Source of the DNA: Clostridia bacterium
Lineage (GTDB): Bacteria; Bacillota; Clostridia; Peptostreptococcales; Anaerovoracaceae
Assembly: GCA_900766045.1 (NCBI GenBank)
Contig: CAAFTW010000046.1
Location: 23,764-87,763, forward strand
Length of the DNA stretch: 64,000 nucleotides
Direction: 5' to 3'
Below the pieces are notes generated by a model, which made no database searches, was not told where the DNA came from, and saw only the letters and a program-made list of their open reading frames with translations. This document shows, one piece after another, positions 4,003 through 49,828 of this stretch (positions are counted from its first letter, which is position 1; every line of letters begins with the position of its first letter). The position numbers and the translations under genes are program-made.

Positions 4003-5238
4003 ATGAGAATACTGAGTATTACTGCGCAGAAGCCGAGCAGCACGGGCAGCGGCGTTTATCTGACTGAAGTCGTAAAAGCCCTTGCCGCAGAAGGCCATCA
4101 GCAGGCGGTCGTGGCGGGAATCACGCATGAGGATGAGCCGGTGTTTCCGGATGGCGTTGGATTTTATCCGGTGTACTATGAGACGGATGAGCTGCCATTT
4201 CCAGTGGCAGGAATGTCGGATGAGATGCCGTACAGAAGTACACGTTACTGTGATTTTACGGAAGAAATGAGTGCTCAGTTTAAAGATGCGTTCTTAACGG
4301 TGATTCGCAGGGCGGTGGATGATCTGGATCCGGAACTGATTTTGTGTCATCATCTGTATTTCCTGACGGCACTGGTAAGAGAAGAATTTCCGGACCGCTG
4401 CGTATGCGGATTCTGCCATAATACGGACCTGCGGCAGATGGAGAAAAATCCAGTGAACCGGGAGTGGATCCGGCCGAGAATCCCCTTGCTGGATAAGATT
4501 TTTGTCCCGCAGAAACCACAGGCGGATAAGACAGTAAGGATTTACGGAGCCGATCCTGAGAAAATCGTCACGGTAGGCATGGGATTTAACGATCAGATCT
4601 TCCGGATTGATCCTTCTGCGCGGGCTGAAAAGCTGCGCCGTGAGGGCGATCAGGGCCGGAGGAGGCTGCTGGTGTTCGCCGGGAAGATCGCGGAGAAAAA
4701 GGGCGTGATGAGTCTGATCAGAGCACTGGACCAGATGGATATTCCGCCGGAGAAGCTCCAGGTCGTTCTGGCGGGCGGCGCCGGTAATAAGGAAGAATAT
4801 CGTCAGATTACGGACATGGCAGAGGAATGCCAGTATGAGCTGAAATTCCCTGGCAGAATGGCCCAGGAAGATCTGGCAGAGCTGTATAACCGGGCGGATG
4901 TATTCGTTCTGCCGTCATTTTTCGACGGAATTCCGCTGGTGGTTATCGAAGCCCTTGCCTGCGGTGACCGGGTTGTGGTATCTTCACTTCCGGGAATTGA
5001 TGCCTGGCTGAAGAAGAACGCGCCGGGTGCGGATGTACGAATTGTAAAGCTGCCAGAAATGAAGAATGCCGACGAACCGGATCCTGCCGGGCTGCCGGGC
5101 TTTGAAGAGAAGCTTGCGCGTGCACTTGAGGAGAGCCTGCTGAGCCCGCTGAGTAAACCGGCAGATGTCAGCAGAATTTCCTGGCGCAGTCTCGTAAATA
5201 CAGTGATCGGAAGTGTTTCCGACCGCAGGACAAAATAA
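4003..5238 (+). CDS. Glycosyltransferase family 1 (GT4-type)
   Basis: GT-B C-terminal signature (..LLVFAGKIAEKKG...VFVLPSFFDGIPLVVIEALACG..). GGAGAA ribosome-binding site before the ATG at 4003; an alternative ATG lies at 3985. Confidence 0.75.
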   Translation: MRILSITAQKPSSTGSGVYLTEVVKALAAEGHQQAVVAGITHEDEPVFPDGVGFYPVYYETDELPFPVAGMSDEMPYRSTRYCDFTEEMSAQFKDAFLTVIRRAVDDLDPELILCHHLYFLTALVREEFPDRCVCGFCHNTDLRQMEKNPVNREWIRPRIPLLDKIFVPQKPQADKTVRIYGADPEKIVTVGMGFNDQIFRIDPSARAEKLRREGDQGRRRLLVFAGKIAEKKGVMSLIRALDQMDIPPEKLQVVLAGGAGNKEEYRQITDMAEECQYELKFPGRMAQEDLAELYNRADVFVLPSFFDGIPLVVIEALACGDRVVVSSLPGIDAWLKKNAPGADVRIVKLPEMKNADEPDPAGLPGFEEKLARALEESLLSPLSKPADVSRISWRSLVNTVIGSVSDRRTK

Positions 5239-5250
5239 AAGGAGCAAGAA

Positions 5251-6027
5251 ATGACGGAGCGCAGACGTGTCTTATTTTACGGCGATTCGAATACATATGG
5301 TTATGATCCGAGGGGCTTTCTGGGAGGCCGCTATCCGATTGAAGAAATATGGGTCAGCCGTGTCCGGGAAGCTCTGAAAGACAGTTGGACGGTAATGATC
5401 GATGGGATGAATGGACGGGAAATCCCGTCCTCTCCTCTTACCATGCAGGCACTGGACCGGACATTGAAAGGCTGCGCTCCTCTGGATCTGTTCGCCGTTA
5501 TGCTGGGTTCAAACGACTTGTTATTCTCCGGCCCGGACCCACGGAAAGCTGCGGATAAGATGGAAATGATGCTGGATCATGTATCGGAGCTTCTCGCGCG
5601 TGAGAACCGGAAGGCGTGGAAAAAAGGAAAGGCGGCCGTGCATGGAATACATGGCGCTGTGGAGGGCCGTAAAGATGCTGATGATGGAACCGGCAGGAGT
5701 GGTGCATCTGCTGACGTCAGACCTGGCGGGAGCGGTAAAGCGGATGCGGATGGCATTGGTGAAAACACATCTGCCGCTTGTCTGAATATAAAAGATGCAG
5801 AAATTCTCCTGATTGCGCCGCCCCTCGATTATTCAGAAGGGGAGCGCCTGAAAGATGCCAGCGCCCGTCTCGGCATCTTGTACAGGAAGCTCGCGGAAAG
5901 GAAACATTACCATTTCCTGGATGCCGGGAGCCAGAACTTTTCACTGGCTTTTGACGGCCTGCATTTTTCTGAAGAAGGACACCGGCAGATGGGAGAATTC
6001 ATGGCAAAGGCGCTGGCGGAGCTGTAA
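5251..6027 (+). CDS. SGNH/GDSL hydrolase-type esterase with an internal low-complexity insertion
   Basis: Block I (VLFYGDSNTYG), block III (GSND) and block V (DGLHFSEEGH). A Gly/Asp/Ala-rich insert lies between the blocks. Strong ribosome-binding site (AAAAGGAG). Confidence 0.75.
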   Translation: MTERRRVLFYGDSNTYGYDPRGFLGGRYPIEEIWVSRVREALKDSWTVMIDGMNGREIPSSPLTMQALDRTLKGCAPLDLFAVMLGSNDLLFSGPDPRKAADKMEMMLDHVSELLARENRKAWKKGKAAVHGIHGAVEGRKDADDGTGRSGASADVRPGGSGKADADGIGENTSAACLNIKDAEILLIAPPLDYSEGERLKDASARLGILYRKLAERKHYHFLDAGSQNFSLAFDGLHFSEEGHRQMGEFMAKALAEL

Positions 6028-6645: not shown

Positions 6646-7128
6646 TTCATAATCGTGGTTAATAAATTATTTCAAAACAAATTTCGAGAAAGTGCTATCT
6701 ATCGATGAATTGCCGGGGCAATGGGAAAGAAAAATAGGAGCAGGCTGGTGAAGATAATGGAACAATGAAGGAGAATTTAGTATGTCGGCAGCATGAAGTG
6801 CAAGTATGCAGTATACACACGATTCTCTCCTCCGTTGACGGGCGCATGGTAATTAAAATTATTTAAATAAAAATATTGACTTAAATTCGAAAAAAGTCTA
6901 TGATAAGCCATGTGGTTAAAATTTTTGAAGTAAAAGTGATGAATTTACGTCAGCATAACTGCTGTCTGCGGAAAATCTGCTGAAGCTGAGATCGTCCGCA
7001 AGACACTGGGCCGCCTGTGAGCCTGATTTTGCAGGAGGGACAGTGGATTCACACACCGATATCATACAATCAGATTCATGTGAGGAATAAGAGTTCGTGA
7101 ATAAGATTGTTCCAACAAGGGGGATCAT

Positions 7129-8061
7129 ATGGGTAAGACAGCGCTTCTTTTTGCGGGACAGGGCAGTCAGTTCCCGGGTATGGGAAAGGACTTTTATGAG
7201 CAGTATTCAGGGTTTAAAAGGGTTTTCGACCTTCTTCCGGAAGAACAGCGGAATATCGCCTTTTCCGGGAATCGGGATCAGCTGAAGGAGACGGTGAACA
7301 CGCAGCCGATTCTTCTGGCTTTTGGAGTCGGAATTTATGAGATATTGAAAAACAGCGGCTTTCGTCCGGATATGGCGGCAGGCCTGAGCCTCGGAGAATA
7401 TTCCGCTCTGACCGCTGCCGGTGTCTTTACGCCGGAACAGGCAGTTTCGCTGATTCAGTGCCGTGCGAAGGCGATGGTGGAGGCTTCTGCAGGCGTTGAG
7501 ACAGAAATGTCCGCGATTCTGGGCCTTGATCGGGAGAAGCTGACAGACTGCCTGAAGCGTGCGTCTTCTGCTGGCCGCGTAGAAGCAGCCAATTTCAACT
7601 GTCCGGGGCAGATCGTGATTGCAGGCGAAAGCGCGGCCGTAGAAGAGGCCGAACGTCTGGCAAAAGAAGCCGGTGCAAGGAAGTGTATGCGTCTTCCGGT
7701 CAGCGGTCCCTTCCACACATCTTATATGAAACCGGCGGCAGAAGTTTTAAGGCAGCGTTTTCAGCATGAATTTTTTGGCAGGATGGAGTTTCCGGTATAT
7801 TTTAACTGCACAGGAAAGCCGGAGAAGGCTGCAGACGGCCAGACTGAGGCGGAATTGATTTCCAGCCTGCTTGTTCGTCAGGTGCAGTCGGGTGTATACA
7901 TGGAGGACACGATCCGGAATATGATCGCTGCTGGTGCAGACCAGTTCATTGAAATCGGCCCGGGAAAGACCCTCTCCGGATTTGTAAGGCGCACAGACAG
8001 AAGCGTACACACGGTCAGTATTACAACAGCAGAAGATCTGCAGGCTTTTCTCAGTGAATAA
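7129..8061 (+). CDS. fabD: Malonyl-CoA:ACP transacylase
   Basis: GQGSQFPGMG and GLSLGEYSAL (active-site Ser). Ribosome-binding site GGGGGA. Confidence 0.92.
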   Translation: MGKTALLFAGQGSQFPGMGKDFYEQYSGFKRVFDLLPEEQRNIAFSGNRDQLKETVNTQPILLAFGVGIYEILKNSGFRPDMAAGLSLGEYSALTAAGVFTPEQAVSLIQCRAKAMVEASAGVETEMSAILGLDREKLTDCLKRASSAGRVEAANFNCPGQIVIAGESAAVEEAERLAKEAGARKCMRLPVSGPFHTSYMKPAAEVLRQRFQHEFFGRMEFPVYFNCTGKPEKAADGQTEAELISSLLVRQVQSGVYMEDTIRNMIAAGADQFIEIGPGKTLSGFVRRTDRSVHTVSITTAEDLQAFLSE

Positions 8062-18478: not shown

Positions 18479-18720
18479 AAGCCGGTAATTAATAGGTGAT
18501 TTCGATACGGGATGACAGCAGAATATTCGATAATTATGTGATCAGGAAGAATAACACGGTTATTCATTTCCCCGTTCGCAGATAAACGGCTGCGGATGGG
18601 GATTTTGTTTACTCTGCACAAAAAACTGTGCAGAAATTGTCAGATGCGGTTGACAGATTGATAAATCTATGAGACACTAATTAACATAATAAACAGAAGA
18701 GATAGAGGCGCACCCTCTAA

Positions 18721-19030
18721 TCAGTAGGTTTTCCTTAAGGATGTACATATCCGGAGGGCAGAAAGGTAGGGGTGCCGAGGCTGGATTTTCCATGTACGGG
18801 GAATTTCAGCTGGGCGTACAGAATAAGATCTGTGCGACTGTCGCAGAGCGCGGACTTCCGAGAAGACGTGTGAGGAATGCGGAGCGCTATCCTGGATGAT
18901 TACCTTGGCGTGTTGTTTTTGTCGTGTGCAGGGCGGGCCCCGGAGGGGGATTTCCGTTTCCATCTGACAGAATGCGCCATGTACAGGAATTTTTCAGGCA
19001 GCTGATTTCGCATCAGCTGTTTATTTTTAT
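18721..19030 (+). promoter_or_regulatory. GC-rich, apparently structured non-coding leader ending in an intrinsic terminator (18997..19030) about 50 nt upstream of nhaC; candidate riboswitch or attenuator of unknown class
   Basis: No convincing ORF in the 310-nt stretch. It contains the pseudo-repeats CCATGTAC(G/A)GG(G)AAT at about 18790 and 18976. The terminal hairpin is GCAGCTGAT-ttcgc-ATCAGCTG followed by TTTATTTTTA. Confidence 0.4.
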
Positions 19031-31924: not shown

Positions 31925-32015
31925 CACGTACATAAAGGGGAGCTGAAAGGCTGAGAAAGGTAAGAACCTGACCCTGAAAACCTGATTTGGATAATGCCAG
32001 CGGAGGGATTATGGA
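31925..32015 (+). promoter_or_regulatory. TPP (THI-box) riboswitch upstream of thiD-cytX
   Basis: GGGGAGCTGAAAGGCTGAGA...ACCCTGAAAACCTGATTTGGATAATGCCAGCGGAGGGA. This matches the conserved CUGAGA and ACCUGAUCUGGAUAAUGCCAGCGUAGGGA cores. Confidence 0.85.
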
Positions 32016-32220
32016 ATATGAATTTTGAAGGGGCTTTTCCGGAAGGAAGGCTCCTTTTTCTATGCTTCCGGATTATTCGGGCTACGGGCGGAATTTCAGA
32101 GAATTTTTCGGAATTCTGCGGAAATCCTGCCGCGCGCATGCTTCTTCCTGCGGCAGATTGGGGGCACCACCTTCGGCCGCAATAGAAAATTAATGCGTTT
32201 CTGAGAAAGGAGAACTCAAG

Positions 32221-41893: not shown

Positions 41894-44047
41894 GTGGAAA
41901 TTAAGATTGCGCTGGCCGGAAACCCGAACTGCGGAAAAACAACCCTGTTTAACGATTTGACAGGAAGCACGCAGTATGTCGGAAACTGGCCCGGAGTTAC
42001 CGTTGAGAAGAAGGAAGGACGTCTGAAGGGTCATAAAGATGTCATTATTCAGGACCTTCCGGGAATTTATTCATTATCTCCATATACCATGGAGGAAGTG
42101 GTTTCGAGAAATTATCTGGTAAATGAAAAGCCGGACGCTATTATTAATATCATTGACGGAACCAACGTAGAGAGAAACCTGTATCTGACCACTCAGGTAC
42201 TTGATCTGAACATCCCGACCGTTATTGCCGTTAACATGTATGACCTGGTCAGGAAAAACGGAGACCGTCTCGATCTCCATAAGCTTGCAAAAGAGCTGGG
42301 CTGCCCGGTTATTCCGATCAGCGCCCTGAAGGGTGAGGGCGGAGCCGAGCTCGTTGACAAGGCCATTGAAATCGCTCAGAAACATCAGAGAGCAGAAGCT
42401 CCGCATGTATTTGAAGGCAGCGTAGAGCACGCCATCGCTCATATCGAAGAGTCCATTTCACCGTTTGTGGATAAAAACAACCTCAGATGGTACGCCATCA
42501 AGCTGTTCGAAAGAGACGAGAAGGTCATCGAAGAGCTGAAGCTGGACGAAGCTCTGATGAAGCACCTGGATATGCACATTCAGGACTGCGAGAAAGAAAT
42601 GGACGATGATGCAGAGAGTATCATCACCAACCAGCGTTACACCTACATTCAGAAGGTTGTAGACGACGCTGTCCATCAGAAGAGAGCAAGAGGAAACATG
42701 ACCCTGTCCGACAGAATCGACCGTGTCGTCACGAATAAGTGGCTGGCGCTGCCGATTTTTGCCTGCGTCATGTTCCTGATGTACTATATTTCCATTTCCA
42801 CACTCGGTGGATGGCTGACCGACTGGACCAACGATACCCTGTTTGGAACATGGATTACCAATGCCGCAAATGCCGGACTGAAGGCGATCGGTTCCCCAGC
42901 CTGGCTGCAGAGCCTGCTGGTTGACGGAATCATCGGCGGTGTCGGAACCGTACTCGGATTCGTTCCGCAGATGGTACTGATCTTCATCTTCATGGCCATC
43001 CTGGAAGATTCCGGATATATGGCGAGAGTCGCCTTCATCATGGACCGTCTCTTCCGCCGTTTCGGACTGTCCGGTAAATCCTTCGTTCCTATCCTGATCG
43101 GAACAGGATGCGGAGTACCGGCGATCATGGCCACACGTACGATTGAAAACGAGCGAGACCGCAGAATGACCATCATGCTTTGTACATACCTCCCATGCGG
43201 AGCAAAGCTGACCATCATCGGCGTTATCGTTTCTACATTCTTCCCGGGATCCAAGTTCATTGCACCAGCAATGTACTTCCTCGGAATTGCCGTTATCGTC
43301 CTCGCGGGAATCGCACTGAAGAAGGTCGGCTACTTTGCTGGTGATCCGGCACCGTTCGTCATGGAGCTGCCTGCTTACCATCTTCCGACGGTAAAGGGTG
43401 TTGCCATCCATACATGGGACCGCGCTAAGCACTTCATCATGAAGGCCGGAACAATCATCTTCTCCATCACCGTAATTCTGTGGTTCCTGCAGAGCTTCAA
43501 CTTCCACATGCAGATGGTTGACATGAACCACTCCATGCTGGCCGCTATCGGACATGCACTGCACTGGATCTTCATTCCGCTCGGATTCGGAAGCTGGAAG
43601 GGAACGGTTGCCGCGATTTCCGCCTTCGCCGCAAAAGAGCAGGCGACATCCACGCTGGCACTGCTCGGTGGATTCAGCGAAGCAAGCAGAGTCGGAATGC
43701 ATGCGATCTTCGCAGGCCCTGGAGTTCCGTCTGCTACACTGGCAGCCTTCAGCTTCCTGATGTTCAACCTCTTCGACCCACCGTGCCTGGTTGCCATGGT
43801 AACTGCATTCAAGGAGCAGGGTCAGCAGAGATGGGGCTGGTACACCGTAGGATTCCAGTTCCTGGTCGGTTTCATGATGTCCTTCATCACCTATCAGATG
43901 GGAGCATGGCTGATTTACGGTGTCTCCTTTGGTGTTGGACAGGCTGTTGCTCTGGTGGTCATCGCATTTATTGTTTACTGCGTTGTCCGCAAGCCGTCTA
44001 AGGGTAAGAGTGAACATCTGCCGGAAGGCGAGCCTGCCGTTAAATAA
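41894..44047 (+). CDS. feoB: Ferrous iron transporter B (GTPase plus permease)
   Basis: G1 (GNPNCGKTTLFN), G3 (DLPG), NxxD, then a membrane domain with gate motifs. GTG start at 41894 with a GGAGAA ribosome-binding site. Confidence 0.92.
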   Translation: MEIKIALAGNPNCGKTTLFNDLTGSTQYVGNWPGVTVEKKEGRLKGHKDVIIQDLPGIYSLSPYTMEEVVSRNYLVNEKPDAIINIIDGTNVERNLYLTTQVLDLNIPTVIAVNMYDLVRKNGDRLDLHKLAKELGCPVIPISALKGEGGAELVDKAIEIAQKHQRAEAPHVFEGSVEHAIAHIEESISPFVDKNNLRWYAIKLFERDEKVIEELKLDEALMKHLDMHIQDCEKEMDDDAESIITNQRYTYIQKVVDDAVHQKRARGNMTLSDRIDRVVTNKWLALPIFACVMFLMYYISISTLGGWLTDWTNDTLFGTWITNAANAGLKAIGSPAWLQSLLVDGIIGGVGTVLGFVPQMVLIFIFMAILEDSGYMARVAFIMDRLFRRFGLSGKSFVPILIGTGCGVPAIMATRTIENERDRRMTIMLCTYLPCGAKLTIIGVIVSTFFPGSKFIAPAMYFLGIAVIVLAGIALKKVGYFAGDPAPFVMELPAYHLPTVKGVAIHTWDRAKHFIMKAGTIIFSITVILWFLQSFNFHMQMVDMNHSMLAAIGHALHWIFIPLGFGSWKGTVAAISAFAAKEQATSTLALLGGFSEASRVGMHAIFAGPGVPSATLAAFSFLMFNLFDPPCLVAMVTAFKEQGQQRWGWYTVGFQFLVGFMMSFITYQMGAWLIYGVSFGVGQAVALVVIAFIVYCVVRKPSKGKSEHLPEGEPAVK

Positions 44048-44367
44048 CCCAATACGCGGTTAATCCTTCCTCAGGGACAAAATGTAACTGAGCAAGGTTA
44101 ATCGGATGAAATCTGCCGATTTCATCTCTTGCACCGGACTGCCCGGTACTGTAAAGTGCCGGCGGCCCGGTTATAAAAAATACATGAGTTAGACATATCT
44201 AATTAATAATAGACGTGTTTAACAAAGAAGTGGATGGGTATCATAAGAATGTCTTCAGAAGGAGCAAGTTACCTTTTGGAAACACACAAACACACAAACA
44301 ATAAACAAACTCAGATAAAAATATTGAGAAAGATCGGCCTGATGCGGCTGCTTTTGGAGGTATTGAT

Positions 44368-44553
44368 ATGAACCCTATTGTTATTATCCTGATTATTGTA
44401 ATTGCTGCATTGTTCCTGCTTGCGCTCCGTCACTCGATCAAGAATGCCGGAAAGTGCAGTGACTGTGACGGAACCAAGTGCGGAACCTGTGCGGCACTGA
44501 ATGAGATGGCGGAAGACCTGCAGAAGAAAGAGGCAGGCCGAGCGCAGAAGTAA
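44368..44553 (+). CDS. FeoB-associated Cys-rich small membrane protein
   Basis: One transmembrane helix, then CSDCDGTKCGTC. Ribosome-binding site TGGAGG. Confidence 0.7.
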   Translation: MNPIVIILIIVIAALFLLALRHSIKNAGKCSDCDGTKCGTCAALNEMAEDLQKKEAGRAQK

Positions 44554-44604
44554 ATATGCACAGGACAGATCCGTTCTGTTCCTGTGTGGAATAGGAGGTA
44601 TTTC

Positions 44605-44889
44605 GTGAGTGTTGTTATTTTAGGCGGAAACGAACGCATGGAGCGTAAATACGCAGATATCTGTAAAGAGTACAATTACAGTGCCAAGGTTTTTACCAAG
44701 ATCAAAAGCGGACTGAAGGGAAGAATCGGAAATCCTGATCTTCTCGTTATGTTTACCAGTACAATGTCGCATAAAATGGTGCGTGCAGCTGTGGCTGCGA
44801 TCAACGAAGACAGTGTCGACATTGTCCATGCGCCGAGCAGCTCCGCCAGCGCACTCCAAAATATCCTTCAGAGCAGGGCAGAAGCGTAA
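44605..44889 (+). CDS. DUF2325-like small protein
   Basis: VVILGGNERM...LLVMFTSTMSHKMVRAAVAAI. GGAGG ribosome-binding site before the GTG at 44605. Confidence 0.55.
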   Translation: MSVVILGGNERMERKYADICKEYNYSAKVFTKIKSGLKGRIGNPDLLVMFTSTMSHKMVRAAVAAINEDSVDIVHAPSSSASALQNILQSRAEA

Positions 44890-45075: not shown

Positions 45076-45990
45076 CTAGTCCTCATCCCGGAAGTTCAGT
45101 GTCTTCTTCAGTCCGTCTACGCCGACCCTGGCCTTCGGGAAAACATCTGTCGCGTTGGACTCATATTCTTTCGGGTCACGGATGCTCTGGCTGAAGTGGG
45201 TGAGCCAGAGTTCCCGGGCATTGGCTTCTTTCGCGAGGCCTGCGGCTTCAGCGAAGGTCATGTGCCCCCACTGTTTAGCCTTTTCAATTTTCTCGTCGTC
45301 CGGGTAGTTTCCTTCCAGAACCATCAGGTCGGCGTCTTTACCGTATTTCACGATGCTTTCGCAGGGTCTGGTGTCGGTGGAATACAGGATCTTCAGTCCC
45401 GGACGCTGTGAACCGAGCACGTCCTCAGGCTTATAGAGATGATCACCGATCTTGACCGGCTCTCCGCTTTGCAGAACCGACCAGGCGCGGATGGGTATTC
45501 CCAGCGCTTTTGCCTTGTCAGGGTCGAATTTGCCGCAGCGCGGCAGGCTGATCTGATAGCCCAGGCAGGGAATGACATGCTGCACCGGGAAAGCCTCAAT
45601 CTGCATATCTCCGCAGCTCAGCTCCGTCTCCGCCTTTCCGTCCGTCTCGCAGGCCAGCACCTTGAATTGAAGCGGCGCAATCACAAGCAGGCACTGCAGA
45701 AGATTGGCCAGTCCCGGCGGCCCGATGACGGTGACATCTTCTGTACGTCCGGCATTTCCCATGGACAAAAGCAGACCGGCAAGACCCGCAACGTGGTCGG
45801 CGTGAAAATGCGTCAGGCAGATCGTGTCAATCGTCTTCAGCCGGCAGGAAGCCTCTGCCATGGCAATCTGCGTTCCCTCACCGCAGTCAATTAAAATACT
45901 GTGTCCTTTAGAAGTTATATAAAAAGAAGTCAGCCAGCGGTGCTTCAGTGGAACCATGCCGGCTGTACCGAGCAGGCAGACATCAATCAT
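45076..45990 (-). CDS. rnz: Ribonuclease Z (metallo-beta-lactamase fold tRNA 3' endonuclease)
   Basis: HFHADHVAG (HxHxDH) motif plus downstream His/Asp ligands. Length matches short-form RNase Z. Confidence 0.85.
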   Translation of the reverse strand: MIDVCLLGTAGMVPLKHRWLTSFYITSKGHSILIDCGEGTQIAMAEASCRLKTIDTICLTHFHADHVAGLAGLLLSMGNAGRTEDVTVIGPPGLANLLQCLLVIAPLQFKVLACETDGKAETELSCGDMQIEAFPVQHVIPCLGYQISLPRCGKFDPDKAKALGIPIRAWSVLQSGEPVKIGDHLYKPEDVLGSQRPGLKILYSTDTRPCESIVKYGKDADLMVLEGNYPDDEKIEKAKQWGHMTFAEAAGLAKEANARELWLTHFSQSIRDPKEYESNATDVFPKARVGVDGLKKTLNFRDED

Positions 45991-46470
45991 AATGCATCGT
46001 CCTTTCTGTAATTTTCTTTGTTATACCTATTTTAACGTGTTTTCACGAATATGTAAATCAGCCAGCTAGTGATGGTGTCAAGAGCTGGTGGGAGTTTTCG
46101 CTGACCGATCTCCAAGTTGTTTTGTGGTCTGTACGCAGCCTGTGCCTGGAACGCCTCTCGGCTCCCTTCGCGCATGCTCACGCTTCCGACTCCGCCGGCC
46201 CTTTCCGGGCCGCCGATCGTCTGGCAGCGAGGCGCTCAGAAGTCCATGCACAGGCTGCGTTACAGACTCACATTCAATCCGCTTAATAGATCTCTTGCTG
46301 CTCCACAGCTCCTGACACCATTTTAGCTGACAGATGTCTGCCCAAATTCTGTGATTCATGATAGAATAAAGAATGGTATAAAAATGCAGAAAGGCCAGAG
46401 CTGCAGAGTGAAGAAGAACCTCTGCTTCTGGCTTCAGAATATCAAATCTATTCAGGAAGGAACTTAAGTC

Positions 46471-46995
46471 ATGAATCAGAATATAGATTTTCAGAAACTG
46501 CGTGAGGATGCAGTTCATATTTTCCATAATGGTTTTGCCTGTTCAGAATCGGTGATTTACGCGATTCAGCAGGATCTGGATCCGGAAATCCCGGATGAAT
46601 TGATTGCGGCAAGCAGCGGCTTTCCCTGGGGCATGGGCGGGGCAGGATGTTCCTGCGGCGCTCTGGCAGGAGGCGTCATGCTGATCGGCCATTATTTCGG
46701 AAGAAAAGAGCCAAAGGGAGCCGAGTACGCGAACTGCCAGAGGCTGACCAGGGAGTATCACGATGCCTTCTGCAGCTGCGCCGGACACGCCTGCTGCGGC
46801 GCGATTATCTCCGGCATGGAGAAAAACTCTGATGAAAGAAAAAATAAATGCACGGGAATCGTCGAGTACGCCGTTACGAAAACCGCGCAGATTATTCTGA
46901 GGGAGAAGGGTCTTCTGACGGAAGAGAAGAATCAGGAACTTCAGCGGTGGCTGGATAATAAGGCGGCAGACTGCAGAAAGCGGGAGCAGGCATGA
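46471..46995 (+). CDS. C_GCAxxG_C_C family putative redox-active protein (second paralog in the window)
   Basis: GFACSESVIYAI...GMGGAGCSCGALAGGVMLIGHYFG...CAGHACCGAI. Ribosome-binding site GGAAGGAA. The stop overlaps the start of the next gene (ATGA). Confidence 0.75.
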   Translation: MNQNIDFQKLREDAVHIFHNGFACSESVIYAIQQDLDPEIPDELIAASSGFPWGMGGAGCSCGALAGGVMLIGHYFGRKEPKGAEYANCQRLTREYHDAFCSCAGHACCGAIISGMEKNSDERKNKCTGIVEYAVTKTAQIILREKGLLTEEKNQELQRWLDNKAADCRKREQA

Positions 46996-49718
46996 AGCGC
47001 ATCGTAACAGGAATACTGGCTCACGTCGATGCCGGGAAAACCACCCTGTCTGAAGCCATGCTGTATAAGACCGGAGAAATCAGCAGCCCGGGAAGAGTCG
47101 ACCACGGCACCAGCTTTTTAGACACAGGAAAGCTGGAAAGAAGCCGTGGAATTACGATTTTCTCTAAACAGGCCCAGCTGAGCTGGGACGATGTGCAGAT
47201 GACCATTCTGGATACTCCTGGACACGTGGATTTTGTCTCGGAGACGGAGAGAACCCTGTCCGTCCTGGATTACGCGATTCTTCTGATCAGCGCGGGCTCC
47301 GGCATCCAGAGCCACACGGAAACCCTGTGGAAGCTGCTGAAGAGAAGCAGGATTCCTACATTTATTTTTATGAATAAAATGGACCTGTCCATTCACAAGA
47401 AATCTGAGTGGATCGATATCCTGCAGGAGAAGTTCGGAAATAGATTTACGGACTTTTCTGTAACAGGCGGAGAGCGCTTCATTGACAGTCTGACTATGGG
47501 ATCGGAAGCGCTGATGGAAAAAGTACTGGATGACCAGAAAATTACTGATCTGGACATTGCCCTTGCAGTAAAAAGAAGGGAAGTATTTCCGGTGTTTTTC
47601 GGGTCGGCGCTGAAGACGGAAGGCATTTCCGAATTCCTTAAGGGCCTTGCCAGGTTTACTTTGTCAGAAGAGAAAAAAGAAAAGTTCGGCGCCAGGGTCT
47701 ATAAGATCGCCAGGGATGAGGATGACCGCCGCCTGACCTTTATGAAGATCACCGGGGGCAGCCTCCGGGTGAAGGATAAGATTGAAGGAAAAACGGACGA
47801 TGGGGAATCCTGGGAGGAGAAGGTCAACCAGATCCGCCTCTATTCCGGCCAGCAGTTTAACGCGGTTCAGGAAGCCGGCCAGGGCATGATCGTGGCGGCA
47901 GAAGGGCTTTCGCAGTCTGAGGCGGGTGACGGCTACGGCTTCGAGAAAAACTCGCATCCGGAGATTCTGGAGCCCTTTCTGACCTATACGGTAATTTCAG
48001 AGGATGGAACGGATTACCATACCCTGCTTCAGGAGGTCAGGGAGCTTGCGGAGGAGGATCCGAAGCTTCATGTCGGCTGGAAGGCTGCGGCGCAGGAAAT
48101 TCACATTCAGATGATGGGGCAGGTGCAGCTTGAAGTTCTGGCCCAGACCATGCTGGACCGTTTCGGGAGAAAAGTGTCTTTCGGATCCGGGAAGATTCTG
48201 TATAAGGAGACGATTGCATCGTCGGTGGAAGGCGTCGGCCACTTCGAACCGCTTCGACATTACGCCGAGGTGCATCTTCTGATCGAGCCTCAGGAGCGGG
48301 GAAGCGGGATATCCTATCAGTCTGTTGCGCCGGTGGACCAGCTGAACCGGAACTGGCAGAGTCAGATCATGACGGCCCTTCAGGAGTATTCCCACACGGG
48401 TGTACTGACCGGATCGCTTCTGACGGATGTGAAAATCACCCTGGTCAGCGGAAAGGCCAGCAAGAAACATACGGAAGGCGGAGATTTCCGTCAGGCTGCG
48501 CGGAGAGCCGTGAGAAACGGACTGATGAAGGCGGAGAACATTTTGCTGGAGCCCTGGTTTTCCTTTACGATCGAGCTTCCGACAGAAAACGTCGGGCGCG
48601 CCATGACGGACATGCAGAAGATCAGCGGGACATTCCAGCCGCCGGAAACGGGCGAGGACCATTCCCTTCTGAAGGGCCGGGGGCCTGCGTCCGGCCTGAT
48701 GCATTATCAGGAGGAGCTGACGCGGTATACGAGAGGAAATGGAAGAATTTACCTGCAGCTGGACGGCTACGATGCTTGCCACAACACAGAGGAAGTGCTG
48801 GAAGAAATCGGCTACGATCCTCTGCGCGACGTGGATAATCCGGCCGATTCCGTCTTCTGTATGCATGGGGAGAGCAATATCATCCCATGGGATCAGGTGG
48901 AGGAGTATATGCATCTTCCGAGCATTCTAGAGCAGGACGAAGAGGAAGATGATGTACTGGCCGCCGCGAGGGTGCACGAGTATGAACACCGGATCGCCGA
49001 CGATAAGGAGCTCATGGCGATTTTTGAGAAGACTTACGGGCAGATCGGCGGGGATAAAACTTCCGGAAATAACGTGCGGATGAATGCCGCAGGTTCCGGC
49101 ATTTCCGGCGTCCGGATGATTAACGCCGACGGAACGGTAGACTATGGGTATTCGACAAAAAGTTCCCGGCAAGAGGCCGTACCGGAAAGCGCGGCCGCAC
49201 GGGATCTTGATGCAGAGCAGAAAGCCCAGCAGAAGCATTCCCATCTGGCAGCCAGAAAAAAAGAAATGGAAAATCGCGCCCAGGAATACCTGATTGTGGA
49301 TGGCTACAACGTTCTGCATAACTGGGATAATCTGGAGGAACTCTGCAGGATGGACTACGGAGCAGCCCGGCAGCAGCTTCTGGAAACCCTCTGCAATTAC
49401 CAGGGCTTCATGCGCTGTAAGATTGCGGTGATTTTCGATGCCTATAAAGTAAAGGGCGGGGGTTCCGCCAGCAGCGGAAAGTTCCATGACATTGAAGTCA
49501 TCTACACGAACGAGGATCAGATCGCCGATTCCTATATCGAGCGTATGACAAAGGAATTATCCGGGAAATACCAGGTCCGTGTGGTGACGAGCGACAGCCA
49601 GGTGCAGCAGATTTCCCTGGGACACGGTGCCCTGAGGACATCATCCAGAGAATTTGAGGCAGAAGTCCGCTCCGTGGAAGATGCCATCCGCCGCGTGATC
49701 AGCAGGGAATCGAGTTGA
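46992..49718 (+). CDS. TetM/TetO-type (EF-G-like) translational GTPase fused to a C-terminal Rae1/YacP-like NYN ribonuclease domain
   Basis: Residues 1 to about 650 are collinear with ribosomal-protection GTPases (ILAHVDAGKTTL, DTPGH, NKMD, domains II-V). After a linker of about 100 aa, residues about 750-908 match YacP/Rae1 (LIVDGYNVLHNW...IAVIFDAYKVKGG...IEVIYTNEDQIADSYIE...VRVVTSDSQVQQISLGHGALRTSSREF). It is a single uninterrupted 908-codon ORF. Confidence 0.8.
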   Translation: MKRIVTGILAHVDAGKTTLSEAMLYKTGEISSPGRVDHGTSFLDTGKLERSRGITIFSKQAQLSWDDVQMTILDTPGHVDFVSETERTLSVLDYAILLISAGSGIQSHTETLWKLLKRSRIPTFIFMNKMDLSIHKKSEWIDILQEKFGNRFTDFSVTGGERFIDSLTMGSEALMEKVLDDQKITDLDIALAVKRREVFPVFFGSALKTEGISEFLKGLARFTLSEEKKEKFGARVYKIARDEDDRRLTFMKITGGSLRVKDKIEGKTDDGESWEEKVNQIRLYSGQQFNAVQEAGQGMIVAAEGLSQSEAGDGYGFEKNSHPEILEPFLTYTVISEDGTDYHTLLQEVRELAEEDPKLHVGWKAAAQEIHIQMMGQVQLEVLAQTMLDRFGRKVSFGSGKILYKETIASSVEGVGHFEPLRHYAEVHLLIEPQERGSGISYQSVAPVDQLNRNWQSQIMTALQEYSHTGVLTGSLLTDVKITLVSGKASKKHTEGGDFRQAARRAVRNGLMKAENILLEPWFSFTIELPTENVGRAMTDMQKISGTFQPPETGEDHSLLKGRGPASGLMHYQEELTRYTRGNGRIYLQLDGYDACHNTEEVLEEIGYDPLRDVDNPADSVFCMHGESNIIPWDQVEEYMHLPSILEQDEEEDDVLAAARVHEYEHRIADDKELMAIFEKTYGQIGGDKTSGNNVRMNAAGSGISGVRMINADGTVDYGYSTKSSRQEAVPESAAARDLDAEQKAQQKHSHLAARKKEMENRAQEYLIVDGYNVLHNWDNLEELCRMDYGAARQQLLETLCNYQGFMRCKIAVIFDAYKVKGGGSASSGKFHDIEVIYTNEDQIADSYIERMTKELSGKYQVRVVTSDSQVQQISLGHGALRTSSREFEAEVRSVEDAIRRVISRESS

Positions 49719-49828
49719 AGTGACTGTTGAAGTCATGGTATAATAAAATATAAATGGGTACTTGAGGAAAAGAGAACACAGATACTTATTTATTTGAAAG
49801 ATAATCATAGATAAAGGAGCAGAACTGT

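Follow-up and report, generated by a model that had tools for sequence, protein, structure and literature searches.

A clostridial family of EF-G/TetM-type GTPases fused to a Rae1/YacP-type NYN endoribonuclease domain

An open reading frame joining a translational GTPase to a Rae1/YacP-type NYN endoribonuclease domain was identified in the window, a stretch of 64,000 nucleotides from a Clostridia bacterium (contig CAAFTW010000046.1). Both parts lie within one unbroken 908-codon ORF at 46992–49718 on the + strand, as the earlier note had reported. That note took the architecture to be undescribed; it is in fact already known, as a clostridial “Tet/TetM-like + NYN_YacP” fusion was listed in Atkinson 2015 (BMC Genomics, PMC4342817), whose Additional file 8 gives the sequences, and again in Matelska 2017 (NAR, PMC5499597), the count being ten species (PMC4342817; PMC5499597). 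The family is large, being found in the reference genomes of at least 600 species, and is common in gut Clostridia; no experimental characterisation of any member was found in the literature. On balance we lean, if only modestly, towards a protein that would act as a GTPase-tethered Rae1 cutting mRNA on stalled ribosomes, with both enzymes catalytically competent. The features identified are as follows (+ strand throughout):

46335..46396 (+), conserved segment of ~60 nt upstream of the C_GCAxxG_C_C gene (blastn against the locus L085, 79% over 62 nt)
46471..46995 (+), C_GCAxxG_C_C gene, 174 aa (Pfam 2e-24; TIGR01909 88 bits, above cut-off)
46992..49718 (+), whole fusion gene, 908 aa plus stop (ORF list, Pfam, NCBIfam)
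47001..47654 (+), G domain, residues 4–221 (Pfam GTP_EFTU, 6e-50)
47685..48185 (+), domains II and III, residues 232–398 (EF-G_D2, EFG_III; confident AF2 model)
48189..48536 (+), domain IV, residues 400–515 (Pfam EFG_IV, 1.7e-18)
48543..48785 (+), domain V, residues 518–598 (EFG_C, 1.9e-16; TetO alignment stops at residue 595)
48777..48917 (+), linker module 1, residues 596–642 (conservation, AF2 model)
48918..49040 (+), variable acidic segment and linker module 2 (alignment conservation; low-confidence AF2 helices)
49041..49289 (+), disordered tether, residues 684–766 (AF2 pLDDT 27–50)
49290..49709 (+), Rae1/YacP-type NYN endoribonuclease domain, residues 767–906 (Pfam NYN_YacP, 4.6e-44)

From N- to C-terminus, the protein comprises a five-domain EF-G/TetM-type translational GTPase, two linker modules, a tether and the Rae1/YacP NYN domain; the AF2 model presents folded GTPase and NYN units with a disordered, K/R/P-rich tether between them. 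The Pfam/HMM check proposed earlier returned GTP_EFTU, EF-G_D2 (residues 232–313), EFG_III (residues 327–398), EFG_IV, EFG_C and NYN_YacP. All G-domain motifs are intact (G1 AHVDAGKTT, G2 T55, G3 DTPGH with the catalytic His78, and G4 NKMD), bearing out what had been said of G1, G3 and G4, and the G1–G4 residues are kept in 78/78 family members; the NYN motifs LIVDGYN, VIFDAY and VVTSDS were likewise all found. The part alignable with TetM/TetO had been drawn too long, its real end lying near residue 595–598 rather than ~650. The description of the region beyond as a Gly/Ser/Ala-rich linker proved incomplete, as residues 596–683 form two family-specific conserved modules. Linker module 1 is a small folded helix/beta-hairpin/helix unit in the AF2 model, with higher pLDDT in the full-length model (~80–87) than without the GTPase body (50–77); its residues C596, C623, H625, W633 and H641 are kept in 76–78 of 78 members, and its Cys/His set is possibly a metal site. 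No match to this module was found in Pfam or the PDB. Linker module 2 reads D-x-E-L-x-x-I-F-E-x-T-Y-G (residues 671–683) in the family alignment. Across 78 members, the tether contains 24% K+R and 10% P and has a median length of 34 aa, as compared to 82 aa in the window protein, which carries a ~50-aa clade-specific insertion.

Several lines of sequence evidence place the window gene in the Atkinson/Matelska family. Additional file 8 includes an entry from Acetivibrio thermocellus ATCC 27405 to which the window protein aligns over 901 positions with 45% identity, and all entries of that file have the motifs GHFEPLRHYAEVH, KHTEGGDFR, CHN...DSVFC...W...MH and LVDGYN; the domain IV tip of the window protein bears the family signatures EGVGHFEPLRHYAEVHL and KHTEGGDFR. 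Relatives occur in Oscillospiraceae, Lachnospiraceae, Ruminococcus, Faecalibacterium, Butyrivibrio, Blautia, Agathobacter and others, amounting to ~279 clusters at 50% identity; members of the 90% identity cluster are labelled Eubacterium sp. Among 78 non-redundant members, with an overall identity of only ~43–55%, 76–78 keep the G1–G4 motifs, His78, the domain IV tip and every NYN acidic residue, so that both activities are selected together. Comparison of these sequences demonstrated that the two ends and the linker modules are under strong purifying selection, and that the fusion is widely and vertically distributed; sequence divergence broadly follows taxonomy.

The stop codon of the C_GCAxxG_C_C gene overlaps the start of the fusion gene by 4 nt (ATGA, 46992–46995), an overlap that the earlier note had described, that can be read directly in the sequence and that is also present in L085, a relative at 82% identity. 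In relatives at 52–55% identity, the upstream gene is tilS, mnmA or a gene for an amidase or sulfatase, and a C_GCAxxG_C_C gene adjoined the fusion in 0/80 diverse reference loci; the obligate co-expression suggested earlier does not hold beyond the clade of ≥82% identity. Judging from these comparisons, the C_GCAxxG_C_C gene is a lineage-specific operon partner. One further locus (L052) has a single weak C_GCAxxG_C_C match 2.5 kb downstream of the fusion. The conserved segment at 46335..46396 matched no Rfam family, and the intergenic sequence outside it is unrelated to L085 by blastn; this segment is probably the promoter or 5′ UTR of the two-gene operon. The divergent upstream RNase Z gene, pyrH, frr and uppS all scored above NCBIfam cut-offs; the pyrH-frr and rnz context is real, but it is restricted to the wider clade of the window gene and absent in the 80 diverse loci. 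In the seven loci with annotated gene calls, the fusion is surrounded by chromosomal housekeeping genes, and no conserved partner gene was found across the loci examined. Because anti-phage defence models gave no match for the fusion, the toxin-like role that had been raised gains no support.

The NYN domain is close to Rae1. It scored 150.8 bits against NYN_YacP (Pfam, residues 767–906; gathering cut-off 24.6), matched B. subtilis Rae1 (5mq8) at 3.5e-22 and is 37.5% identical to this protein over 136 residues; fused NYN domains from 87 loci are 34–49% identical to it. Residues D770, N773, D816, D846 and D868 of the fusion correspond to D7, N10, D53, D81 and D104 of Rae1, and the acidic residues and the N773 equivalent are kept in 78/78 family members. 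A Foldseek search with the AF2 C-terminal model matched only Rae1 (5mq8, 5mq9; TM 0.69–0.77, rmsd 1.6–3.2 Å). The earlier assignment of the last ~160 aa to Rae1/YacP is supported for NYN_YacP but not over the whole length: the window domain covers Rae1 residues 2–140 of ~170 (Pfam profile 1–141 of 166) and therefore lacks the C-terminal ~25 residues of stand-alone YacP, while tailed relatives cover the profile from 1 to 165. Rae1 is a ribosome-associated, translation-dependent mRNA endonuclease that acts ahead of tmRNA on ribosomes that have stalled or collided (PMC12407103; PMC13622287), a link with stalling, collision and trans-translation that dates only from 2025–26. The laboratory behind the A-site model has since moved the cut to the tail of the stalled ribosome, 12 nt upstream of the A-site codon (PMC12407103), and a 2026 preprint ties Rae1 to collided ribosomes and tmRNA (PMC13622287); cutting within the A-site, as assumed in the earlier note, is thus outdated. 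No Rae1-70S structure was found in the copy of the PDB that was searched.

Delivery of the nuclease to the ribosome by the GTPase module is a reasonable inference. In the favoured reading, the GTP form of the GTPase body would occupy the ribosomal factor-binding site, with domain IV probing the A-site region, and by docking there the fusion would pick out ribosomes that have stalled or cannot translocate. Once docked, the GTPase would hold the nuclease by its tether no more than a few tens of angstroms from the mRNA, either on that ribosome or directly behind it. There the nuclease would cleave mRNA in the manner of free Rae1 at stalled or collided B. subtilis ribosomes; the shortened message would then be open to rescue by tmRNA, with GTP hydrolysis freeing the fusion factor. 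For the fusion itself, we infer that it binds the ribosome, which ribosomal state it recognises, that mRNA is its substrate and that its action is linked to trans-translation. A cut on the same ribosome at the position used by Rae1 is geometrically doubtful, since the mRNA-exit tail is far from the factor site and the typical tether has only ~34 residues; the fusion may instead cut at the A-site or entry side, or in mRNA between collided ribosomes. The window member may behave differently from its relatives, because it lacks the last ~25 YacP residues and has Ser in place of the domain IV tip His.

A broader version of this scheme is more tentative. In most gut Clostridia, Rae1 function could be hard-wired to an EF-G paralogue, forming a GTP-gated sensor-effector, that is, a single-polypeptide, GTPase-assisted counterpart of no-go decay that feeds trans-translation; we regard this as possible but doubtful. 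Here the domain IV tip KHTEGGDFR would sense the state of the A-site, or the rotation state, of a ribosome that has stalled or collided, the tethered NYN domain would be licensed to cut mRNA only after GTPase sensing, and the conserved Cys/Cys/His/His module on domain V could bind metal and contact rRNA or mRNA so as to position the nuclease.

The substrate may be another RNA: with the GTPase docked at the factor site, the NYN domain could cleave 16S/23S rRNA in the vicinity of the decoding or GTPase centre, or else ribosome-bound tRNA, leading to rRNA/tRNA maturation or to inactivation or turnover of the ribosome in place of mRNA decay. The yacP neighbourhood (mrnC, yacO/rlmB) suggests a role in an rRNA/tRNA processome (PMC5499597), a tether with a median of 34 aa would hold the nuclease close to the factor site, where no other RNA is as abundant as rRNA, and rnz, tilS and mnmA loosely recur nearby, with TrmO-like genes in six loci. 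However, these nearby tRNA genes vary across the family, and Rae1, the sole NYN_YacP enzyme to have been characterised, cuts mRNA in a manner that depends on translation and on reading frame (PMC12407103; PMC13622287); with a fused domain at 34–49% identity to Rae1 and the same active-site residues, we consider an rRNA or tRNA target unlikely.

A tetracycline ribosomal protection protein carrying an extra RNase domain, displacing A-site tetracycline as TetM/TetO do, is far less probable. The closest solved relatives of the GTPase body are TetO, TetM and EF-G, with TetO (4.5e-76) and TetM (5.5e-73) as the best whole-protein matches; NCBI/JGI label cluster members as [quoted passage not shown], and a novel resistance mechanism was raised as a possibility in Atkinson 2015 (PMC4342817). 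In our searches, tet_protect (NF012153) was the top NCBIfam match, yet at 417.8 bits against a cut-off of 775; the TetM/W/O/S model gave 304 bits (cut-off 1100), and all Tet-specific models were far under cut-off, as was the EF-G equivalog TIGR00484 (263.7 bits; cut-off 659.4). In TetM, the domain IV loop reaches the tetracycline site and dislodges the drug, as described in the TetM/TetO cryo-EM literature. This loop (YSPVSTPADFR in TetO/TetM) aligns to S-K-K-H-T-E-G-G-D-F-R, with no Pro, in the window protein, and the family consensus at this position is AH-x-KHTEGGDFR, the tip motifs being kept in 76–78 of 78 members. Domain IV by itself is slightly nearer EF-G than TetM; the residue aligned with the EF-G domain IV tip His is His in 73/78 members and Ser in the clade of the window protein, and Foldseek matched the fusion model to EF-G at E ~1e-50. 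The housekeeping neighbours and a divergence that tracks taxonomy are, moreover, unlike those of mobile tet genes. The designation of the GTPase as TetM/TetO-like overstates the match, since the protein falls below the Tet cut-offs and lacks the TetM domain IV loop; on sequence grounds, it cannot be counted as a true tetracycline-resistance protein. Because many records give these fusions TetM/TetW/TetO/TetS names although they fail the curated cut-offs, resistance-gene counts in gut metagenomes may be inflated.

That the fusion is an artefact of chimeric assembly, or of a missed stop or frameshift between adjacent genes, is extremely improbable and was rejected on comparative data, as no support for it was found, even with many relatives being metagenome-assembled genomes, and the two parts are separated by modules conserved across the family. 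The identical protein is encoded on five independent contigs, 32 proteins make up its 90% cluster, some encoded on complete chromosomes of 2.4–2.75 Mb and one a RefSeq isolate protein, both parts lie in one ORF in 83/84 fetched loci, the architecture is common to all of the best 120 homologues, and isolate genomes in the Atkinson 2015 list carry the fusion.

That Rae1 occurs naturally fused to a factor-site GTPase argues strongly, at the genomic level, for the ribosome as the place where Rae1-type nucleases act, and GDPNP should trap an anchored complex of this kind more readily for cryo-EM.

As compared to the published fusions, nothing essential differs in the window copy, which presents the tether insertion of ~50 aa, the loss of the last ~25 aa of YacP and the acquisition of an overlapping upstream C_GCAxxG_C_C gene. 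The fusion has the five-domain, EF-G-like GTPase of the TetM/TetO ribosomal protection proteins and, by sequence, would be expected to use the same ribosomal factor-binding site, but it has ~310 C-terminal residues beyond TetM/TetO, and its neighbours in annotated loci are chromosomal housekeeping genes rather than mobile-element genes. With EF-G it has in common domain order, fold and intact G motifs, from which it differs by a distinct domain IV signature and by the C-terminal extension and nuclease. The fold and active-site Asp/Asn residues are those of Rae1/YacP of Bacillus subtilis (PDB 5MQ8/5MQ9), and the two presumably have the same chemistry and ribosome-linked role; however, Rae1/YacP is a stand-alone protein of ~170 aa, typically encoded in the context mrnC-yacO(rlmB)-yacP (PMC5499597), whereas the fusion has different neighbours, its NYN domain forms the C-terminal end of a 908-aa GTPase and, unlike free Rae1, it carries a predicted built-in factor-site anchor. 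SmrB in E. coli, MutS2 in B. subtilis (an ATPase plus an SMR domain) and Cue2/NONU-1 in eukaryotes are nucleases that sense stalls or collisions (PMC12407103; PMC13622287). By analogy, the fusion would follow the same concept, an endonuclease combined with a recogniser of problem ribosomes upstream of rescue; the SMR fold of these nucleases is unrelated to the NYN fold, and the predicted sensor of the fusion is a factor-site translational GTPase rather than an ABC/MutS-type ATPase or a protein that binds the disome interface.

A single ORF was found to encode both an EF-G/TetM-like translational GTPase and a Rae1/YacP-type NYN nuclease, as the earlier note had proposed; Pfam places the EF-G domains and NYN_YacP in the same reading frame, together with two linker modules that we delimited between them:

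46992-49718, + strand: fusion ORF, 908 codons, uninterrupted
residues 4-221: GTP_EFTU (Pfam, 6e-50)
residues 232-313: EF-G_D2 (Pfam)
residues 327-398: EFG_III (Pfam)
residues 400-515: EFG_IV (Pfam)
residues 518-598: EFG_C (Pfam)
residues 596-642 (window 48777-48917): module 1, a conserved continuation of the chain after domain V
residues 671-683: module 2, motif D-x-E-L-x-x-I-F-E-x-T-Y-G, following an acidic variable stretch
residues 767-906: NYN_YacP (PF05991; Pfam, 4.6e-44; 150.8 bits vs. a gathering score of 24.6)

An assembly artefact is ruled out by five independent contigs that carry a protein identical to the window fusion, by complete 2.4-2.75 Mb Eubacterium sp. chromosomes that carry some of the 32 members of its 90% cluster, by the presence of EF-G domains and PF05991 in 120/120 of the best database homologues (47-94% identical, 845-918 aa), and by 83 of the 84 fetched genomic loci, in which the GTPase and NYN parts form one ORF; the sole exception lies at a contig edge.

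The architecture, which the earlier note had taken to be undescribed, has been published; it is present in the survey by Atkinson 2015 (PMC4342817), with sequences in Additional file 8, and in that by Matelska et al. 2017 (PMC5499597), and, aligned over 901 positions, the window fusion and the A. thermocellus entry of Additional file 8 share 45% identity. The window gene is a new member of this published, uncharacterised fusion family, and the fusion will be no surprise to specialists who know the two surveys. No experimental work on any family member was found in the literature covered. Deves et al. 2025 (PMC12407103) mapped the cut made by Rae1 on a stalled ribosome to a point 12 nt upstream of the A-site codon and withdrew the A-site model of Rae1, superseding the premise of A-site mRNA cutting from which the earlier note had argued; a preprint by Tetreault et al. 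2026 (PMC13622287) describes tmRNA substrates made by Rae1 on collided ribosomes. Neither of these two reports mentions the GTPase fusion. The family is large and neglected, and the new work on Rae1 in collision rescue makes it timely.

Conservation was counted in an alignment of 26 homologues and then in one of 78 non-redundant genomic copies. Motifs G1-G4, with the catalytic His in DTPGH, are kept in 78/78 copies, and the family signatures of domain IV, EGVGHFEPLRHYAEVHL and KHTEGGDFR, in 76-78/78. Residue 490 (nt 48459-48461), which aligns with the His at the tip of EF-G domain IV, is His in 73/78 copies and Ser in the clade of the window (5/78). In the NYN domain, D770, N773, D816, D846, and D868 align with D7, N10, D53, D81, and D104 of Rae1 and are all kept in 78/78; Rae1 crystal structures were the sole PDB matches to the modelled domain (TM 0.69-0.77, rmsd 1.6-3.2 A), and the fused domains of 87 loci share 34-49% identity with B. 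subtilis Rae1. About half of the family carries an additional C-terminal tail of 17-46 aa that completes the YacP profile (1-165/166 in family member P0081); the domain of the window lineage ends at profile position 141, the Ser-490 clade being without the last ~25 YacP residues. Neither the window nor the fetched flanks (1.3 Mb) yielded a second NYN copy, a result with little bearing on whether whole genomes also encode a free Rae1.

Module 1 is conserved (C596 in 78/78, C623 in 76/78, H625 in 77/78, W633 in 78/78, and H641 in 77/78), and the Cys2His2-like set C596/C623/H625/H641 suggests a putative metal-binding mini-domain. The full-length AlphaFold model presents this module as a confident helix, beta-hairpin, and helix (pLDDT about 80-87); because pLDDT falls to 50-77 when the GTPase body is left out, module 1 probably packs on domain V. 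A search for the fold identity of both linker modules gave no match in Pfam or the PDB. Module 2 is followed by a disordered tether, of median length 34 residues in the family (K+R 24%, Pro 10%), which an insertion of ~50 aa extends to 82 residues in the Ser-490 clade. The fusion consists of two intact catalytic modules under joint purifying selection, joined by a conserved extension and a flexible basic tether.

A scan with two domain IV peptides as queries, using one genome per species, yielded at least 600 matches, and in all of the best 80 loci the match runs on to the end of the NYN domain. These 80 loci come from Oscillospiraceae, Ruminococcus, Faecalibacterium, Lachnospiraceae (Butyrivibrio, Blautia, Anaerobutyricum, and Robinsoniella), Intestinimonas, Flavonifractor, Herbinix, and Mogibacterium; the only one not labelled with a clostridial taxon is a full-length fusion on a short contig (CAVEPP010000094.1, 6.7 kb) binned as Alloprevotella sp. 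(Bacteroidota). This placement is likely due to mis-binning, with horizontal transfer as a less likely origin. Complete genomes with the fusion include those of A. thermocellus ATCC 27405, C. cellulolyticum H10, B. proteoclasticus B316, A. rectalis ATCC 33656, D. hafniense, and Eubacterium sp. F2. With residues 596-908 as the query, an exhaustive HMMER search recovered 279 clusters (50% identity) at E <= 1e-30, the full-length ones measuring 830-1070 aa with the match at the C-terminus.

The genes flanking the fusion encode RNase Z (divergent, upstream) and the products of pyrH, frr, and uppS, each scoring above its curated NCBIfam cut-off, in agreement, for rnz, pyrH, and frr, with the arrangement first noted. 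Immediately upstream lie:

46471-46995, + strand: C_GCAxxG_C_C gene, whose TGA overlaps the fusion ATG as ATGA
45991-46470: intergenic gap (480 nt) that separates the C_GCAxxG_C_C gene from rnz

Direct reading bears out the ATGA overlap. The wider clade of the window (52-55% identity) retains the backbone rnz ... fusion ... pyrH-frr-uppS-cdsA-dxr-rseP, and the immediate upstream gene varies within it, being the C_GCAxxG_C_C gene with the same 4-nt overlap in an 82% identical relative and tilS, mnmA, an amidase, or a sulfatase gene elsewhere. The C_GCAxxG_C_C gene was thus acquired recently and locally, and its coupling to the fusion does not belong to the system. In a tblastn search with the window neighbours, pyrH, frr, rnz, and the C_GCAxxG_C_C gene adjoined the fusion in 0/80 diverse loci, and clustering of the two ORFs on either side in 84 loci revealed no conserved operon partner, the largest clusters (6-9 loci) including ABC transporters and a signalling protein. 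The fusion observed in the earlier note is confirmed and its interpretation there has partial support, whereas the claim of novelty and the suggested obligate two-gene pairing are refuted.

Genes for tRNA processing or modification recur loosely beside the fusion in different lineages, with gaps sometimes of only 1-13 nt, and may be chance neighbours within housekeeping regions, as they are not conserved family-wide:

45076-45990 of the window: rnz
4461-5999 of locus L087: tilS
6927-7988 of locus L004: mnmA
downstream of the fusion in 6 loci, e.g., L019: TrmO-like gene

The 480-nt gap gave no match in Rfam; at its position the 82% identical relative carries a three-gene opuA-type ABC transporter, no remnant of which was found in the gap. 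Only ~60 nt (46335-46396) of the gap are conserved with this relative, and a GC-rich stretch (~46080-46330) is unique to the window in this comparison. A strong σ70-like site (49715-49744; TTGAAG, 18 nt, TG-TATAAT) overlaps the fusion stop codon, and no terminator-like hairpin was found between the fusion and pyrH, suggesting that pyrH-frr may be transcribed both from a predicted promoter of their own and by read-through. Elsewhere in the window, a lysine riboswitch (18695-18897, + strand; 87.5 bits) and a TPP riboswitch (31926-32025, + strand; 69.7 bits) scored above their Rfam gathering scores. A feoB gene (717 aa) followed by a DUF2325 gene occupies 41894-44889; in the 82% relative the corresponding place holds a FeoB-associated gene and DUF2325, and this pairing is hence conserved at least in the lineage of the window.

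GTPases of the EF-G family occupy the factor site of the ribosome and point domain IV towards the 30S A-site. From this mode of binding and the Rae1 literature, we infer as most likely a mechanism in which the fusion, in its GTP form, would dock on a ribosome recognisable as stalled by its A-site or rotation state; the tethered NYN domain would then cut RNA on or beside the docked ribosome, the factor would be released through GTP hydrolysis, and tmRNA would handle the truncated mRNA. The main weakness of this mechanism is geometric, because free Rae1 cuts where the mRNA exits the ribosome, a long way from the factor site, and with a tether of ~34 residues the NYN domain may not reach that cut site on the same ribosome; the target may consequently be mRNA in the A-site or entry channel or, with the factor bound to the trailing member of a collided pair, the mRNA between the two ribosomes. 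The main rival to mRNA cutting at a stalled ribosome is that the NYN domain could target rRNA or tRNA. A defence-system reading, and the toxin-like role raised in the earlier note, are left without support by PADLOC, which gave no match.

Many cluster members and homologues are named [quoted passage not shown] by NCBI and JGI. The fusion is no genuine member of the ribosomal protection proteins (tet_protect, 417.8 bits vs. a cut-off of 775) and falls far below the threshold of every Tet-specific model; a role in tetracycline protection was also rejected on the absence of the TetM/TetO domain IV loop and on the position of the fusion among housekeeping genes in the annotated loci. Given the score and the missing loop, these names look like systematic over-annotation, which may raise the apparent number of resistance genes in gut metagenomes. 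EF-G identity was likewise rejected (TIGR00484, 264 bits vs. a cut-off of 659); domain IV alone is marginally nearer EF-G (4e-10) than TetM (3.8e-8), and Foldseek with the whole model did not tell EF-G, EF-G2, and TetM apart. In the TetO alignment, the YSPVSTPADFR loop of TetM and TetO is replaced by KHTEGGDFR in the fusion family. The His at the domain IV tip of EF-G is shared by most members and is Ser in the clade of the window.
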